A model generated the notes under the pieces. It was not told the origin of the DNA and ran no database searches. It saw only the letters and a program-made list of their open reading frames with translations. From the sequence record OR887633: a stretch of DNA of 64,000 nt. The stretch is one strand, 5' to 3'. Below, in pieces: positions 5,821 through 52,761 of the stretch. Position numbers and translations under genes: made by a program. This DNA is from Shigella phage vb_GEC_SH_GT. Position 1 is the first letter of the stretch. Every line of letters begins with the position of its first letter.

Positions 5821-6003
5821 TTATTTTGCCCAGGGAGCCCAGGGCGGAGGGTCAAGATGGTATGAAGCTAGTTCTTCTAGAAGAGCATCTGGGGCTTCAA
5901 TTCCATAATTCTGTAATACTATACGGTACTCTTTCTTATAATCACTAGAATCATTCTGGATATTCGTAGAATGATTATCTTCTAACATCTCAAATAAATC
6001 CAT
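5821..6003 (-). CDS. hypothetical protein (60 aa)
   Basis: Small ORF in the modB-soc interval; no motif. Confidence 0.4.
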   Translation of the reverse strand: MDLFEMLEDNHSTNIQNDSSDYKKEYRIVLQNYGIEAPDALLEELASYHLDPPPWAPWAK

Positions 6004-6011
6004 ATTAATTC

Positions 6012-6494
6012 CTAGCGATAAAAACCAAATTGACGATTAGCTTCAATAATCTTTCTTTCTTCTTCGGACATTCTCCAGCGTAGTCCAACATCAAAATGAG
6101 CCCAGACCATCTTAATGAATGCATTTATATCTTTAATATCTTCAATAATGAATGTTTTACTTTTAGAAGGTTGACCTGCTAAATTAAGTGCTAATTTAAC
6201 TTTATCGTCTTCAAACAGGTCAAAAAGACCATATTCATGAGCTCTTTTATAGCCTTTAATAGTTAAAGCTTCAGAAGAAGAAAATGGTGAATCAGTATTC
6301 TGCAAAATATCTTCAGTATGCTTTATAATTAGAATAACATTTTCTGGATATTTTCTTTCTTTTATATCTTTAATTAAAAGATTCGGATTTTCTGCTAAAG
6401 GAATAATTAATGAGCACTTTTTGTCAAGCGTATTTACTGATTTACCTTCTTTAGACATAAATTCTATTGAATATAGTTTTGCTACTTCAATCAT
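6012..6494 (-). CDS. hypothetical protein (160 aa)
   Basis: ORF with SD GGAAA before ATG; modB-soc interval (mrh/srh region of T4). Confidence 0.5.
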
Positions 6495-46345: not shown

Positions 46346-47392
46346 TCATTTATAATAACTTCGGTGGTTTTCAAGATAGACCTTCTCAAGGAAGTCATCC
46401 CAGAAACTCATGTCTACTTTTTGCTGCATACCGTTCTTAGAAGCTTCAGTAGATGCTGCTTCTACTTGATCGACCACATCTTCCAAAAACTCTTGAACCG
46501 TTTTAAATGGATGTTTACCCAACTTCACGTCGAGAATAAATGGAGCATCTTTGAGTGGATAAACCAAGTCACCAGTTTTGTAAATTTCCAATAGTTGAAG
46601 TCCACCACGACAAGCATGGCTCAAAGCTTTCCAGTCAATACCTTCGTTGGCTTCGGCCTTACGAGCACGTTCACCGTATTCAGCATCTAATTTGTTCAGT
46701 GACTGCTTAAGTTCAATAAGAGAAAGCGTTGTCTGATATTTACGACCCAACACAGTGTAGAACGTTTGTGGGCCTGTTTTCTCATGATTATGGAACACCC
46801 ATTCACAGAATTCGTTTTCTGGAAGACGATGCTTAATATCTTCAACTTTAGTACGACGCTGCTTAATAGAACCATCTTCTTGGTAATCAATCCATTGCTC
46901 AGGGATTTGATTAACTACTTTCAATACATCACGTAATGCAGCCAAACGAGAACCCTTGACGCCATATTTAGAAGCTTGCTTACGGACATATCCTAAATAG
47001 GATTTCATGTTAGTCGTATAAAAACGAGAACGGTTGTCTTGAATAAACTTCCACACATCAGGCAAATCAGATTTAACCACTAGTTCAGGTGGAGTGTGAA
47101 GCATATCCAATGCTACGGTTTCACCATCTGCTGCTAATTTAAAGAAATATTTAAGACTGTATAGTTCATGGTCAATATCATCTTTAGTGTTTTTAGATGA
47201 TGTGTTGTTAGTGTTTTTGCTCATATGCTCTTTGACATTTCCGATAAGAATATCGCGAGCAGGAGGAACAAAGATTTCTTTAAAATCTACATCAGATTCT
47301 GGGGTAGAAGTTCCATAAAGATGACTACCAAAATAAGACTTAACTACAGTTTTCATTATTAGACCTTTCATAATCTTCATTAAATTGTACAA
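46346..47392 (-). CDS. Pol-beta superfamily nucleotidyltransferase-like protein
   Basis: 348 aa; N-terminal GS-x10-DVD motif (GSHLYGTSTPESDVDF); start may be an internal Met. Confidence 0.6.
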   Translation of the reverse strand: MYNLMKIMKGLIMKTVVKSYFGSHLYGTSTPESDVDFKEIFVPPARDILIGNVKEHMSKNTNNTSSKNTKDDIDHELYSLKYFFKLAADGETVALDMLHTPPELVVKSDLPDVWKFIQDNRSRFYTTNMKSYLGYVRKQASKYGVKGSRLAALRDVLKVVNQIPEQWIDYQEDGSIKQRRTKVEDIKHRLPENEFCEWVFHNHEKTGPQTFYTVLGRKYQTTLSLIELKQSLNKLDAEYGERARKAEANEGIDWKALSHACRGGLQLLEIYKTGDLVYPLKDAPFILDVKLGKHPFKTVQEFLEDVVDQVEAASTEASKNGMQQKVDMSFWDDFLEKVYLENHRSYYK

Positions 47393-48119
47393 TCAATCGA
47401 TGATAATTAGATTTTGGATATCCTAATTTACTTATATAAGTTCCGAATGACCCACGTTTAGGTCTATTTAATTTAATCCATAACTTATAAAGTAAGTCAT
47501 AGTCTTGCCAATGTTTACCAGTTCTTTGTCTAATTTTAGATGAATTTGATTGTTTCTTTTTAGTTTCAAAATTATTCAAAGATTTTTTGACTGCAGCAGA
47601 GTGTTTTTCTTTAACTCCCGGCCGTTTAAAAGCAGCTTTCACCCCTTTAGATATTTTTTCTTTAACTTCCGGTTTGTTTTGTGCTTCTAACTGGGATTCT
47701 GAAATTTTAGCCCTTATTTCAGGAAGACTTAATGTTATCGAACGTTTTTCTCTGTATTCATTAGACTTCCACATTTCTTTCATTGTATTAGAATGTATTT
47801 TTGAAAATTTTTCTCTAACTAACTGATATCCTCTTGAAGTTAATTTGAGATTTCTTCCTAAAGAATCTTCTCCAAAATTATAAAATGACCACCATGCATA
47901 AATTAATCCAGGCGAATTATAATGAATTTTAGCTAAAAGCCAATGGGCTATAAAATGCTCTCTAGCTGTTAATAAAACTAGATTATCAGAATCATCATTA
48001 CCACCAATACAAGATGGAATAATATGATGCTTTTCCGTATAAAAATTTAATTTAGATTTATCTAATTTTCTGAGTTTTCCTTTCTTAATTAAATTATTAT
48101 ATACTTTAGTATAATTCAT
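47340..48119 (-). CDS. free-standing HNH homing endonuclease (MobD-like)
   Basis: 259 aa; EKHHIIPSC...NLVLLTAREHFIAH; N-terminus paralogous to ORF 25678..26394. Confidence 0.75.
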   Translation of the reverse strand: MNYTKVYNNLIKKGKLRKLDKSKLNFYTEKHHIIPSCIGGNDDSDNLVLLTAREHFIAHWLLAKIHYNSPGLIYAWWSFYNFGEDSLGRNLKLTSRGYQLVREKFSKIHSNTMKEMWKSNEYREKRSITLSLPEIRAKISESQLEAQNKPEVKEKISKGVKAAFKRPGVKEKHSAAVKKSLNNFETKKKQSNSSKIRQRTGKHWQDYDLLYKLWIKLNRPKRGSFGTYISKLGYPKSNYHRLIVQFNEDYERSNNENCS

Positions 48120-48193: not shown

Positions 48194-48727
48194 TCACTTT
48201 GAAATCATAGTTGGAATAACAGAATCAAGATAAGTCTTTAGTGCAATAGCTTCGTCTTTGGTAAATGTGACAATATGTGCTCGAAAATCATCAATTTGAC
48301 GAATAGTTAAGACATCTCCATCTTCATAACATTTTGATACGTTTAAAACAGTTTCATCATTCTGATTACAGGAGTTAGTAATAATAGCATTACATTTTTT
48401 AAACCATTTTAAATTATGTTTTCTTTTAGTAGAATCATAAAAATATTTAATGTTAGTTATAAAATTATCCCAATTATTAATTGATAAGCACATTGACTCG
48501 CTTTTAATATTAAATCCTGGGCATGAAGAATAAAAATGAATTTTATGCTCATCATTAATGCTTACAATTTTATCAGTGTAAGGTTTTTCAATTTGGGTTA
48601 AATGAATAATTTCGCTAGGCGTAAAATATAGCATATCGTCTTCTTGCGTCAAACGATACATATTATTTACTTTTTCTATAGCCAATTCACCAAAAAGTGA
48701 ACTAACTTCTAATACTAATCGTTTCAT
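48194..48727 (-). CDS. hypothetical protein (177 aa)
   Basis: ORF. Confidence 0.5.
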   Translation of the reverse strand: MKRLVLEVSSLFGELAIEKVNNMYRLTQEDDMLYFTPSEIIHLTQIEKPYTDKIVSINDEHKIHFYSSCPGFNIKSESMCLSINNWDNFITNIKYFYDSTKRKHNLKWFKKCNAIITNSCNQNDETVLNVSKCYEDGDVLTIRQIDDFRAHIVTFTKDEAIALKTYLDSVIPTMISK

Positions 48728-48728
48728 A

Positions 48729-49007
48729 TTAATCCTTTTTATTTGCGCTGATTTGTTCTAAAATTTTAGAGTATTCCTTTGTATCAGATTTACGTACAAT
48801 TGATACACTATAAGGCATACTATCGGTGTCTTTTATAAAGCGTTCCAAATGACACTCTAACAAAATTTCTGGATTATAAATCGTGTACATCAAATTACCT
48901 GTTGCTCCACGATATTGGCAGATTTCTACTGATTGAACACCATTCCATAATTTTGTTAAAACTAAGTCACCTACTTCTAATTTAGGAAAACTCATATTAT
49001 TCACCAA
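48729..49007 (-). CDS. hypothetical protein (92 aa)
   Basis: ORF. Confidence 0.45.
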   Translation of the reverse strand: MVNNMSFPKLEVGDLVLTKLWNGVQSVEICQYRGATGNLMYTIYNPEILLECHLERFIKDTDSMPYSVSIVRKSDTKEYSKILEQISANKKD

Positions 49008-49179
49008 TTAAAGTTTCAACAAAATTCACTAAATCGTTCTGACGAGCGTCAACCTGTTTTTCATAGAAATCAGCAGCGCCATCATTTACTGCGTGATAAG
49101 CCACATCATTTAAATCGGTATCGGCTTCACGTAAGTCATGAATAAGGTCCATCAACTTATTGGCTTGTTCACGGGTCAT
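48997..49179 (-). CDS. small acidic helical protein, TREQ family member
   Basis: 60 aa MTREQANKLMDLIHDL...; early promoter 49314..49341. Confidence 0.45.
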   Translation of the reverse strand: MTREQANKLMDLIHDLREADTDLNDVAYHAVNDGAADFYEKQVDARQNDLVNFVETLIGE

Positions 49180-49313
49180 TACATACTCCTTTGAATCATA
49201 TCAATAATATTGTTCACCAGATTATAGGTAAACAAAGGATAATTATATTGAATCATCACATACACAACAAACAAAATTTTCATTCTCTTCTCCCCAGCAG
49301 TTGACAAGATTAT

Positions 49314-49341
49314 GGTATAGTAATCTTGTCAACTTGTAAAC
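49314..49341 (-). promoter_or_regulatory. T4-type early promoter
   Basis: Minus strand GTTTACAAGTTGACAAGATTACTATACCA. Confidence 0.55.
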
Positions 49342-49506
49342 CATTAAATGACGTTTTCAATAAAATTTTGAAGCTTTGTGTGAGCATCAACCATGATTTT
49401 CATTTCTTCTTTGGCGAAAGCTGTACCTCTTTCCCGAGCAGAATACTCATAGTCAGAAACTGCATTAGCATATTCTTCAATTAGCTTCATTAAAAACATC
49501 TGCTTT

Positions 49507-49701
49507 TCAGTTTTCATTATTCCACCTAATCATTTCAAGATATTGAACTAACTTAGCTTTAGATTTATCCAAATCCTTTTTAGCTGCTTCTATACCGTCG
49601 TATGAATATCCTTCACAATGCTCAACTGCTAATTGATATGAATCTATTTCAATATCACGTGCTAATTTAATGATTTTTTCAAACTGTTCACGTGTTAGCA
49701 T
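49507..49701 (-). CDS. small acidic helical protein, TREQ family member
   Basis: 64 aa MLTREQFEKIIKLARDI... Confidence 0.45.
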   Translation of the reverse strand: MLTREQFEKIIKLARDIEIDSYQLAVEHCEGYSYDGIEAAKKDLDKSKAKLVQYLEMIRWNNEN

Positions 49702-49703
49702 AA

Positions 49704-49943
49704 TTAAACTCTCGTATTATGATCGATAATTTCATCAAGAAACATATCTAACGCTTCTAAAGCATTATCAACTTTAGCTTCAAGTTCATCAATGCCTTTA
49801 TTTGCAATGCCTGACGAAAACCAAGCAAAGTCACTAAGTTCCTCGTCTGCTTTACGAATTAAAGCTACCAATTCCTTAATTTTATCCGCTTGTTCGATAC
49901 TAATCATTATTCCACCACATATGAAAGAGAGAATATTGCACAC
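49704..49943 (-). CDS. small acidic helical protein, TREQ family member
   Basis: 79 aa; ...[19 protein letters not shown]... Confidence 0.45.
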
Positions 49944-50140
49944 GCCATGTGAGTTGCAACTTCATCACACATATTATAACGTTTCTTAAGAAGTTCTACA
50001 AGTTCTTCACTAGTAACTTCATCCATGTCGACGAAAAAATCACCATTAATGATGACGTAGATATTTCCTTCTTGATTGAGTGCTTCAATTTTCATGATGT
50101 TCTCCTCTTTATCCGATGGTTGTATAGTATCACAGCTCAA
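49907..50140 (-). CDS. hypothetical protein (77 aa)
   Basis: Early promoter 50121..50153. Confidence 0.45.
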
Positions 50141-50153
50141 ATGGAAAGTAAAC
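50121..50153 (-). promoter_or_regulatory. T4-type early promoter (terminator-promoter cassette)
   Basis: Minus strand GTTTAC...TACTATACAACC; preceded by UUCG-loop terminator. Confidence 0.55.
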
Positions 50154-50163
50154 CGGTAAAATG

Positions 50164-50185
50164 AAAAAAGTCTCCCGAAGGAGAC
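50164..50185 (-). terminator. intrinsic terminator with UUCG tetraloop
   Basis: GUCUCC-UUCG-GGAGAC followed by UUUUUUC; same cassette as 7933..7957. Confidence 0.7.
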
Positions 50186-50190
50186 TAACG

Positions 50191-50577
50191 TTATTCGAGG
50201 GAAAGAAGATACTTACTCTGGTAAAACATTCCAGTAATATCATCTATCGTGCTTTGGATGGCTGGAGGCATTTCTTTATAAATGCTGTTAGATTGGTCTA
50301 GTATGCGATCAATCATTTTAATTGTGTCGGTAGGAAGTTTACTGGCATCTGGAATTGAAGGTGTGTATTTTCTACCAGAATACCCCAAATATTGCTCACC
50401 AAATTTATCAATCAAATCTGGCAACTCGGAGAAAATAAAATCGTATGCTTTGTGTCTAGCATAACTTTTAGTTTCAAAATGTGCAGAATGAAAATAAGCT
50501 TGTGCAGCCATTAATAAACCTAAGTATTCATCTGCCTTTGAAGGTTTTCCACTTTGTGAAAAGTCGCTGAATTTCAT
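50191..50577 (-). CDS. hypothetical protein (128 aa; rI.-1 position)
   Basis: ORF coupled to rI. Confidence 0.5.
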
Positions 50578-50867
50578 TCAGTCTCCAATTTAATGTTCAT
50601 AATTCTAGCGTATGATTGTGCCATCTCCGCGCCTCGCTCTATACATTCAAAATCAGAAGAGCACGGGTCATTTTTATAGGTCGTTCTCATAAAACTATAG
50701 AATTGTTCAGACGATTCTACGCTTTTATTTTCAAAAAGCATATAAACGTGCCTAATACCAGATTCCATAAATTTATCAAAATGAGGATCGACATTCGCTT
50801 CAATCGGTGGAGATAAAGCAAACGCTAATCCTAGCATGGCAAATAGTGCCGTTGCTTTTAAGGCCAT
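50574..50867 (-). CDS. rI: lysis inhibition regulator RI
   Basis: 97 aa; N-terminal signal-anchor MALKATALFAMLGLAFALS; as T4 RI. Confidence 0.9.
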   Translation of the reverse strand: MALKATALFAMLGLAFALSPPIEANVDPHFDKFMESGIRHVYMLFENKSVESSEQFYSFMRTTYKNDPCSSDFECIERGAEMAQSYARIMNIKLETE

Positions 50868-50879
50868 AAAGGCCTCCTA

Positions 50880-51092
50880 TCATTTTTGTCCTGTATTTAC
50901 TTTATGCCGATGCACGGCCTTAACTTTATCAAGGTATTTTTCAAAATTTCGCAATCTAGTATAGTCTGCCGGAGATTGGTTGAGTGATACTTCTCGACGC
51001 AAAGCTGAAATGATATTTCCAACTTCCCTACGAATTTCATCTAATTGAAGAACGGTAAGATTGCGAAGTTGCTTTTCAGTTAATTGTAGCAT
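50880..51092 (-). CDS. hypothetical protein (70 aa; rI.1 position)
   Basis: ORF. Confidence 0.5.
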
Positions 51093-51134
51093 ATATACCC
51101 CTTTAGTTAGATAAACCTATTTATAACTTTTGCA

Positions 51135-51716
51135 CTAACCGAGCTTTTTAGTTAATTCATTCCAATGTTTTCTACACAAAGAAACATAAATTTCATCACC
51201 AATACAGATTTGATTACCTTCTTTAACTGGTGTTCCATCTTCCATTAATCGAGCTGTCATAATAGCTTTTTTACCACAATGACAAACTGCCTTTAGTTCA
51301 ATAAGTTTATCTGCAATCGCTAAAAGTTCTTTAGAACCTTCAAACAATTTTCCAGCGAAATCAGTCCTTAAGCCATAAGCCATAACAGGAACATTATATG
51401 TATCAACAATTCGACTTAATTGATGCACTTGTTCAGTTTTTAAAAACTGAGCTTCATCTACAAATACACAATGAATATCTTTTTGTGCTTCAGCCCATTT
51501 ATAGAACTCGAAAATATCCATATCATCTGTAATAATATTCGCTTCCTGCTTAATTCCAATGCGAGAAACGACTTCGCAGACAGAATCGCGAGTATCAATA
51601 GCAGGCTTAAGAACTAATACACTCATTCCACGTTCTTTATAATTATGTGCAGCAGTCAAAAGAGAAGCAGATTTTCCAGCATTCATTGCTGCATAAGTAA
51701 AAATTAAACTCGCCAT
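51135..51716 (-). CDS. tk: thymidine kinase
   Basis: 193 aa; Walker A AAMNAGKS, C-terminal Zn ribbon CHCGKK...CRKH. Confidence 0.95.
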   Translation of the reverse strand: MASLIFTYAAMNAGKSASLLTAAHNYKERGMSVLVLKPAIDTRDSVCEVVSRIGIKQEANIITDDMDIFEFYKWAEAQKDIHCVFVDEAQFLKTEQVHQLSRIVDTYNVPVMAYGLRTDFAGKLFEGSKELLAIADKLIELKAVCHCGKKAIMTARLMEDGTPVKEGNQICIGDEIYVSLCRKHWNELTKKLG

Positions 51717-51717
51717 T

Positions 51718-51906
51718 TTAGTCCTTAGTTAAATTTTCTAAATATGTTTTTAAATCATTTTCAGCTTTATCGATAGATTTTACTAATTCGTAATATGTTT
51801 CGGCATCTCCATATTCAGAAGATATTTCAAAAGACAAATCCTTTTCTAAACTAATAATTTCACCAACTAAAAATAATATTTCGTTCTTTTGTTCGCGAGT
51901 AATCAT
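51718..51906 (-). CDS. small acidic helical protein, TREQ family member
   Basis: 62 aa MITREQKNEILFLVGEI... Confidence 0.45.
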   Translation of the reverse strand: MITREQKNEILFLVGEIISLEKDLSFEISSEYGDAETYYELVKSIDKAENDLKTYLENLTKD

Positions 51907-52094
51907 AAGGAATTTATATAATTAATGAGTTCTTGTTCTTTATTATCAAATTCTTTGGAAAGTTCTTCATATTCATTTGCGCTAAAAGGACCGCATTCAT
52001 CACAAACTTTTTCTAATTCACTATTTTTATCCATAATTTCGTGGATAAGAGAAAAGAGTTTGTCTTTTTGTTCTTTGCTTAAACTCATAACCAT
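51903..52094 (-). CDS. small acidic helical protein, TREQ family member
   Basis: 63 aa; ...SKEQKDKLFSLIHEI... Confidence 0.45.
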   Translation of the reverse strand: MVMSLSKEQKDKLFSLIHEIMDKNSELEKVCDECGPFSANEYEELSKEFDNKEQELINYINSL

Positions 52095-52312
52095 GTCACC
52101 TTTAAGCAGTATTCTTCTACATGCTGTTTACGACCTTTCTTATCAATAAAGGTATATTCAACGAATGTTCCAATGTAGTCTTTATCTACATCATGTGGAC
52201 TATTAATTGGACATTTAGTACGGCAAATGCGTTCCCATTGACGAATAATTACTGCCTTATTCTTTGGGTCATATGGATGTGGATAATGTATATTCATAAT
52301 AATGGTTCCCAA
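52085..52312 (-). CDS. hypothetical protein (75 aa)
   Basis: ORF. Confidence 0.45.
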   Translation of the reverse strand: MGTIIMNIHYPHPYDPKNKAVIIRQWERICRTKCPINSPHDVDKDYIGTFVEYTFIDKKGRKQHVEEYCLKVTWL

Positions 52313-52761
52313 TCAACAATCACAATTTCTAATTTAGAGGAATACGTATCTAAAATATCTTCAATAATATCCCAGTTCCCTTTACCTATGCCTGCACCAA
52401 TCCTAGGCATATAGATTGTAGGTTTAATCAGTTTATTTTCACCAAACTCATTTAATTCTAACATACAATTCATTAAAGCGGAATACTCAAAATTTGGCCC
52501 TGGTTGAAATTGAGTATAAAGGTTGAAGCAATACGCTTTATGAGTCCTAAAGTATTTTTCATAGACTGAGTAAGAACCGAGTTTAGTTACATCACCCCAT
52601 TCAGTCTGTAATTTATCAGCTTCCAAAATTTTAGGGAAAGCTTTGGTTAATTGACCTGCTACGCCTGAACCCATAGTATGAAAACAATTGCATCCATGCG
52701 CAATATTTTTACCTTCAGCGAAAAGGGCGACAATATCGCCCTTGATATATTTTACAATCAT
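52294..52761 (-). CDS. macro-domain-like protein
   Basis: 155 aa; GDIVAL...NIAHGCNC...MGSGVAG and later GAGIGKG resemble macro-domain ADP-ribose-binding loops. Confidence 0.55.
   Translation of the reverse strand: MIVKYIKGDIVALFAEGKNIAHGCNCFHTMGSGVAGQLTKAFPKILEADKLQTEWGDVTKLGSYSVYEKYFRTHKAYCFNLYTQFQPGPNFEYSALMNCMLELNEFGENKLIKPTIYMPRIGAGIGKGNWDIIEDILDTYSSKLEIVIVDWEPLL

Follow-up and report, generated by a model that had tools for sequence, protein, structure and literature searches.

Six diverged DUF7438 paralogues around rI and tk in a Shigella phage: a phage-restricted family of predicted helical hairpins with conserved ends and a variable tip

The genome of Shigella phage vb_GEC_SH_GT (sequence record OR887633) raises a question in the neighbourhood of its rI and tk genes, where several short open reading frames (ORFs) on the minus strand encode proteins of about 60 amino acids (aa) with similar N-termini: do these proteins form one family and, if so, what might the phage use them for? 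We analyzed a stretch of 64,000 nucleotides from this genome, which we call the window. An earlier inspection of the letters by a model that made no database searches (the sequence-only reading) had listed five of these ORFs as a dispersed and diversifying family of acidic helical proteins, possibly DNA mimics or inhibitors. We find that the genes are paralogues of one phage-restricted family and that there are six of them, because the gene mobD.2a had been overlooked. The family is already catalogued as Pfam DUF7438 and PHROG 653, and its genes are named ORFs of phage T4.

All six proteins match Pfam DUF7438 (PF24219) with scores of 55.6-70.6 bits and E-values of 1e-15 to 1e-19, given a gathering threshold of 25 bits, and the matches extend over positions 1-56 or 1-57 of the 57-position model. 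They sort into PHROGs 653, 4859 and 2758, which cross-match one another. The Pfam model may include these very proteins, and we therefore used leave-one-out hidden Markov models (HMMs) as a non-circular test, in which a model built from five copies was scanned over the remaining 686 of the 691 ORFs in the window. The omitted copy was always the top match, with E-values of 6e-14 (for the gene that we call slot 1), 1e-10, 9e-10, 5e-7 and 2e-5, while the next ORF had E>0.1; mobD.2a was the weakest copy in this test (E 0.0096). When compared by hhalign to a profile of 26 diverse members, the six copies reached a probability of 97-99%, and other small minus-strand ORFs at most 5%. The gene that had been overlooked is thus found by each method (mobD.2a: 59.8 bits to DUF7438, PHROG 2758, hhalign 97.4%), as is the slot-1 gene (55.7 bits, PHROG 4859/653). 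Profile searches and hhalign revealed no seventh copy within the 64-kb window. The candidate rI.1, whose N-terminus (MLQLTEKQL...) is superficially alike, was rejected by hhalign, and mobD.5 and other window ORFs were rejected by profile comparison.

It might be supposed that such proteins resemble each other merely because they are helical and rich in E, K and L. Their pairwise identity is merely 24-30% and some pairwise phmmer E-values are weak, as this explanation would have it. However, the leave-one-out models, the curated Pfam model and hhalign all split the six proteins from the 685 other window ORFs, which include many small acidic helical ORFs, and the same motif positions are retained across 39 representative clusters from a wide protein search. 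We consider the compositional explanation, which the sequence-only reading had itself named as its potential undoing, to be refuted, and its probability to be negligible. The multiple alignment and HMM that were suggested at the same time separate the copies cleanly from the other window ORFs, and the five ORFs originally listed are indeed present on the minus strand and homologous over their full length.

Positions 48700-52400 of the window are 97% identical to T6, PST, RB14 and many other Tequatroviruses, and therefore the window is, judging by this similarity, a minus-strand-transcribed segment of a T-even (Tequatrovirus) phage genome. Gene names were assigned by alignment with the annotated genomes of RB14 and T4. 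The DUF7438 cluster is bounded by the HNH homing endonuclease gene mobD and the macro-domain gene tk.4, and its members (Table 1) flank rI.-1, rI, rI.1 and tk on both sides. The claim that diverged paralogues lie on both sides of rI and tk thus holds by Pfam, leave-one-out models and hhalign. Five of the window genes occupy the same genomic slots as their T4 counterparts; the slot-1 gene has no counterpart in T4. Four window proteins are 93-98% identical to T4 proteins, and the corresponding values are 76% for mobD.4 and 84% for mobD.2a, the latter over the 67% that aligns.

Two start codons deserve comment. For mobD.4, the range of 49704..49943 on the minus strand had been given earlier, which corresponds to a GTG start at 49943. 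The ATG at 49907 is preceded by a Shine-Dalgarno sequence (GGTGGA), coincides with the stop codon of mobD.5 and results in a protein of the same length as the annotated homologues; for these reasons it is almost certainly the true start, and the GTG is unlikely. For tk.2, the start at 52094 that had been proposed is retained in Table 1, but translation may instead begin at 52088 (MSLSKEQ, 61 aa), as in the T4 annotation and with an ATGA overlap with tk.3. The genes are tightly packed: mobD.2a overlaps the end of mobD.3, including its stop codon, by 11 nucleotides (nt), tk.2 overlaps the start of tk.1 by 4 nt, and each junction within tk.2-tk.1-tk is either a 4-nt overlap or a 1-nt gap.

Table 1. 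Members of the DUF7438 family in the window and a predicted regulatory cassette, with positions counted from the first nucleotide of the window
Feature	Position	Strand	Length	Net charge	Remarks
slot 1	48997..49179	-	60 aa	-9	RB14 'ncORF101c' position
mobD.2a	49344..49517	-	57 aa	-2	named mobD.2a in RB14
mobD.3	49507..49701	-	64 aa	-3	
mobD.4	49704..49907	-	67 aa	-9	
tk.1	51718..51906	-	62 aa	-8	directly upstream of tk
tk.2	51903..52094	-	63 aa from 52094	-8	
terminator-like stem-loop and early-promoter match	50124..50186	-			AGTCTCC-TTCG-GGAGACT and T-run, then TTTACT-N17-TACTAT; upstream of mobD.5; from scan and sequence

To obtain a view of the likely fold, we ran AlphaFold2 on tk.2 alone, using a family alignment of 59 sequences. 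The resulting model has one helix at residues 7-32 and another at 39-62, connected by a loop of six residues, with a mean predicted local distance difference test (pLDDT) score of 90.3. The helical character that had been read from the sequence is therefore confirmed for tk.2 at the level of a confident model, and the family fold is predicted to be an antiparallel two-helix hairpin of about 60 residues. Column statistics of the alignment give each helix a single hydrophobic stripe at a/d positions, with alanine at central positions. The most conserved residues are M, I/L, T, E, Q, I/L and L near the N-terminus and L, Y/F, L/I and L/I near the C-terminus, and in the model both of these termini lie at the open end of the hairpin. 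The T/S-x-E-Q element, which is modelled at the exact start of helix 1, looks like a helix N-cap.

The loop-proximal half of the hairpin is considerably more variable than the ends, with a mean column entropy of 2.69 bits vs 1.83 bits (Mann-Whitney p=1.5e-4). The middle third of the protein was the least identical part in five out of five allele comparisons; for example, tk.2 alleles of classes A and B are identical at 17/20 positions in the N-terminal third and 12/21 in the C-terminal third, compared to 6/20 in the middle. The codons for the conserved residues vary between copies, and a search for DNA-level repeats linking the six copies, as a trace of recent duplication or gene conversion, found none. 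We conclude that the conservation is at the level of the protein, and that the duplications are old.

The description of the family as acidic is accurate for only some of its members. Following the gene order from 48997 to 52094, the proteins range in isoelectric point (pI) from 4.3 to 5.3 with the net charges given in Table 1. Strong acidity (net charge -8 to -9, pI 4.3-4.4) is seen in four of the six, whereas mobD.2a and mobD.3, with pI 5.0-5.3, lack it.

The family appears to be confined to phages. A word-indexed search of 5.8 billion proteins yielded 121 clusters, all of which derive from T4-like coliphages or from phage contigs in E. coli or Shigella assemblies. When 1.84 billion cluster representatives were scanned exhaustively with HMMER, only 39 reached E<=1e-3, two of which (P0130 and P0137) are spurious, being repeat proteins. 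Neither search, whether of the 5.8 billion proteins or of the 1.84 billion representatives, showed a homologue of bacterial rather than phage origin. Overall, at least 740 sequenced phages of the T-even type carry the family, and its members always lie among small ORFs of an early or accessory kind. In a T4-like metagenomic contig that is distantly related (71% identity in tk), three tandem copies lie between a tk.4 homologue and tk. The remotest members are single copies in unrelated phage contigs, where they are surrounded by runs of small ORFs, and a tblastn search of distant members against cultured phages gave no match. The family signature is kept at 25-35% identity across genera, where DNA similarity is gone. 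In addition, fold matches in BFVD include uncharacterised hairpins of 55-70 aa in Karamvirus- and Moonvirus-type phages of Enterobacter and Citrobacter, and these modelled proteins may be further family members.

Several proteins appeared to fuse the domain to other sequences (P0035, P0098, P0017, P0080 and P0096), but we attribute these cases to read-through, frameshift or deletion artefacts. One of them, P0096, represents together with P0109 a hybrid protein found in some T4-type genomes, in which the ~40 N-terminal residues of MobD.3 are followed by an unrelated C-terminus (...FWDDFLERVYLENHRSYYK). A natural deletion with one end within mobD.3 could account for this arrangement.

We compared eight loci for variation between close relatives. 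Among Tequatroviruses, identity in the flanking genes rI.-1, rI.1, tk and mobD.5 is 97-100%, and in tk.3 it is 93-100%. Some of the DUF7438 genes vary far more. The slot-1 gene of the window belongs to an allele, type A, that is 93% identical to that of the RB69-like phage phiE142. The proteins at this position in RB14, G50 and PYPS2T have roughly 33% identity to it; G4507 carries the same type B allele as these phages, and the gene is absent from T4 and OES_C-3. At least three allele classes exist for tk.2, with >=93%, 57% and 49% identity to the window copy, which is of class A; in 551 of 741 phage records, tk.2 is less than 60% identical. tk.1 is present or absent among Tequatroviruses, and the phages without it include some whose tk is 99% identical. 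Alleles of mobD.4 differ by the presence or absence of seven loop residues, the window having the long-loop allele and T4 a loop that is 7 aa shorter. mobD.3 and mobD.2a, on the other hand, are 95-100% identical among Tequatroviruses. The copy number is 3 to 6 across the compared phages, and relative to T4 the window phage has one extra copy (slot 1), an intact mobD.2a and the long-loop mobD.4.

Despite this turnover, the genes within each orthologue group are under purifying selection, with ratios of non-synonymous to synonymous polymorphism (pN/pS) of 0.07-0.18. The exceptions are the slot-1 type B alleles, at 0.42 with 16 summed differences, and tk.1, which has too few changes. Among tk.1 orthologues, we counted 6 summed pairwise non-synonymous differences and 0 synonymous ones, numbers that are too small to argue for positive selection. 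The family had been called diversifying. The flux of slots and alleles and the divergence of the middle third agree with that word, but the purifying selection and the lack of DNA repeats do not. Given the pN/pS values, the term is best understood as old duplication combined with allele replacement, with no ongoing positive selection.

Other parts of the region show comparable variation. A gene encoding a Phage_tudor protein (48729-49007, minus strand; PF24144, E 3e-40) and the slot-1 gene behave together as an insertion/deletion cassette covering 48729-49179. T4 and many other Tequatroviruses match the window from ~49163 onward and have neither gene, both genes are found in RB14, G50 and PYPS2T, and G4507 has the slot-1 gene without the tudor gene. 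The macro-domain gene tk.4 (52294-52761, minus strand) is 99-100% identical in T4 and RB14, and 57% identical in G50, whose tk is 99% identical. The endonuclease gene mobD (47340-48119, minus strand) is found here and in T4, while RB14, G50 and others have two unrelated ORFs in its place; this replacement is a further sign of a hyperplastic region. In the T4 reference sequence NC_000866, a frameshift splits mobD.2a (5994-6166), whose annotated product has 38 aa; the T4D genome of the HIDEN-SEQ study, like all other phages compared, has the intact gene of 174 nt. The frameshift is either a strain-specific pseudogene or an error in the reference sequence.

Published T4 data give information on when these genes are expressed. 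T4 MobD.3 and MobD.4 have early RNA and belong to the early protein class, Tk.1 and Tk.2 have early RNA and belong to the middle protein class, and mobD.2a is listed with early RNA only, lacking a protein call (PMC9697503 supplement). Since protein classes were assigned, the four orthologues MobD.3, MobD.4, Tk.1 and Tk.2 were detected by mass spectrometry. The cassette upstream of mobD.5 (Table 1) matches the consensus of the PeSL promoter-terminator cassettes of PST and T4, TTTACW-N17-TAYWAT (PMC4122927), and by this resemblance it probably drives the mobD.5-mobD.4-mobD.3-mobD.2a cluster. The mobD.5 promoter of T4 has been used as a control (PMC1702504). Between mobD.2a and mobD.2, at 49301-49340 on the minus strand, we observed a perfect 12-bp inverted repeat (TTGACAAGATTA, an 8-nt loop, TAATCTTGTCAA) that overlaps the promoter-like sequence TTTACA-N17-TACCAT; it is PeSL-like but has no T-run.

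Genetic data from T4 indicate that the genes are individually dispensable in the laboratory. In CRISPRi-ART knockdown, all five T4 genes were scored 'Not Fit' (PMC11879866), and a phage with a spontaneous deletion from nrdC.11 to mobD.3 is viable (PMC9825161). In HIDEN-SEQ transposon mapping, the five T4 genes are classed as 'Non-essential', with insertions at 91-100% of sites, and one conditional comparison gives log2 fold changes of -0.13 to -0.50 with an adjusted p = 1; the main text of that report names no family gene as conditionally essential (bioRxiv 10.1101/2025.11.20.689424). The same report shows that the Septu defence system is inhibited by nrdC.1, another gene of this variable region (bioRxiv 10.1101/2025.11.20.689424). 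Our literature search found no functional study of any DUF7438 gene.

The explanation that we favour, at something close to an even chance, is that the proteins act on host-takeover or counter-defence targets by binding to proteins. It is preferred because the genes are expressed early and lie in an accessory part of the genome, and because nrdC.1 sets a precedent. Under this explanation, the hairpin would be a small protein-binding scaffold. Its conserved open end (M-[IL]-T-x-E-Q...[IL]xxL together with LxxYLExL) would nucleate the fold and probably offer a shared surface for pairing, because a lone two-helix hairpin usually buries its hydrophobic stripe by dimerising or by docking. The hypervariable half close to the loop would determine the identity of the partner, and the proteins would bind stoichiometrically to host proteins and modulate them early in infection. 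Paralogues and alleles would then cover different or overlapping targets; this would also explain why single knock-outs are silent, and redundancy probably masks phenotypes. The earlier suggestion that these proteins may be inhibitors is plausible. A more specific version is that the open ends pair into homo- or hetero-oligomeric bundles whose variable tips recognise host immune or housekeeping proteins, resulting in a combinatorial counter-defence repertoire. We regard this version as somewhat unlikely. A natural protein with two family units (P0140), which we modelled with hairpin pairing in mind, gave a low-confidence structure (pLDDT 69, predicted template modelling score 0.44).

It is important to emphasize that several observations weigh against the explanation by host targets. 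Our literature search found no target, interaction or phenotype for DUF7438 proteins, and knockdown or disruption of single genes in T4 had no effect in the CRISPRi-ART and HIDEN-SEQ studies (PMC11879866; bioRxiv 10.1101/2025.11.20.689424). Fold and profile searches of PDB, Foldseek, NCBIfam and PADLOC gave no link to a characterised inhibitor. The one natural protein with two units was modelled with low confidence (pLDDT 69), and the pairing of hairpins is a proposal. Moreover, conserved ends and a variable middle could reflect folding constraints alone, and the high conservation of mobD.3 and mobD.2a fits a housekeeping accessory role as well as it fits an arms race.

Another explanation is that the proteins are accessory subunits or regulators of the phage's own machinery, such as thymidine kinase or the dNTP-synthesis complex, the neighbouring macro-domain protein Tk.4 or the lysis-inhibition proteins. 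Besides the strong conservation of mobD.3 and mobD.2a, it is favoured by the tandem copies that hold their position between tk.4 and tk in the distant contig, where tk is 71% identical, and by the 4-nt overlap and 1-nt gap of tk.2-tk.1-tk, which suggest co-translation. However, T4-like phages generally share their gene order, which makes synteny weak evidence; tk.1 is absent from phages with a 99% identical tk, and more distant members occur in unrelated phages without tk. Moreover, tk itself is non-essential, and the HIDEN-SEQ data contain no linking phenotype. We therefore judge a role in phage machinery to be quite unlikely. A function as DNA mimics, in which dimers of acidic hairpins imitate the phosphate backbone and titrate host DNA-binding proteins (restriction enzymes or nucleoid proteins, for example) in the manner of Ocr or Arn, was raised by the sequence-only reading, and we find it weakly supported and improbable. 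With net charges of -8 to -9 over 60-67 aa, four of the six proteins rank with the most acidic small ones in the window, and they combine early expression with a variable accessory region. The idea was built on acidity, however, and acidity is not family-wide, with mobD.2a at -2 and mobD.3 at -3. The charge density, at -0.13 to -0.15, is much lower than in Ocr. The acidic positions, except for the N-terminal E and the E of YLE, are not conserved, and neither the PDB sequence search nor Foldseek revealed a sequence or fold match to a known mimic.

It is also conceivable that the ORFs are evolutionary filler, persisting by duplication and hitch-hiking in a hyperplastic region without any selected function. 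Individual dispensability, the frameshifted mobD.2a of the T4 reference and a copy number that ranges from 3 to 6 all agree with such a scenario. However, pN/pS values of 0.07-0.18 indicate purifying selection, the proteins have been seen by mass spectrometry, and the family signature is kept at 25-35% identity across genera. mobD.2a is, in addition, intact at every other compared locus and in the HIDEN-SEQ T4D annotation. We consider it very improbable that the genes are filler. The favoured explanation, binding to host targets, also agrees with the properties of the counter-defence and host-takeover class: early expression and laboratory dispensability are taken from the published T4 data, and accessory turnover from our comparison of loci.

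Our results confirm a catalogued domain of unassigned function and describe it more sharply. To the existing catalogue, we add a sixth copy in the window, corrected starts, the finding that the ends are conserved but the tip varies, and the combination of discrete alleles with purifying selection. About half of T4 genes have no known function, and DUF7438 supplies five or six of these genes per genome. Should the hairpins prove to be inhibitors whose specificity tips can be exchanged, they would constitute a compact and easily engineered scaffold, and they could also explain differences in host range between near-identical therapeutic phages.

A final question is how these proteins relate to known systems, and here existing annotation must be treated with care. 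We judge the label 'helicase loader' on slot 1 (PHROG 4859, RefSeq) to be an artefact, as the protein is 60 aa long and DUF7438 is its sole Pfam match. The T4 gp59 helicase loader has about 217 aa, and has nothing but this annotation string in common with the slot-1 protein. We likewise regard the label 'molybdopterin-guanine dinucleotide biosynthesis protein MobD' as an artefact, which we explain by confusion with the T4 gene name mobD; it is found on RefSeq genes of the mobD.1, mobD.4 and mobD.5 types and on other members in phage contigs of E. coli and Shigella assemblies. The neighbouring rI.-1 carries a misleading name of its own, 'Starvation-inducible transcriptional regulator', and all of these names are spreading.

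A PDB sequence search with the family profile yielded nothing below E 0.28, and scans of NCBIfam and PADLOC gave no meaningful match. In Foldseek searches of PDB and BFVD, there was no match at E<=0.001 (the best E for PDB was 0.83), and the hits were generic hairpins (FrmR/CsoR, Rop and Med11/22) or uncharacterised phage proteins. The Rop/Rom protein of ColE1, a homodimer of 63-aa helical hairpins, resembles the family in size, in its two antiparallel helices of ~25 residues and in its short loop, features that are predicted for the present proteins. However, there is no sequence relationship (hhalign 0.07%, and no Pfam Rop match at E<=1), and the structural match to a Rop mutant (Foldseek template modelling score 0.80-0.88, non-significant E 3.2) is expected of any hairpin. 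The likeness to Arn, Dmd, Acb2/Vs.4 and NrdC.1 is of another kind: no homology to the DUF7438 family was found by Pfam, PDB sequence, Foldseek or PADLOC searches, but these proteins are likewise early, small and dispensable on laboratory hosts, and they likewise lie in variable regions with flux of alleles and copies. As for the T4 proteins of Pfam DUF7438 and PHROGs 653, 4859 and 2758, the window proteins match them end to end, and nothing essential differs.

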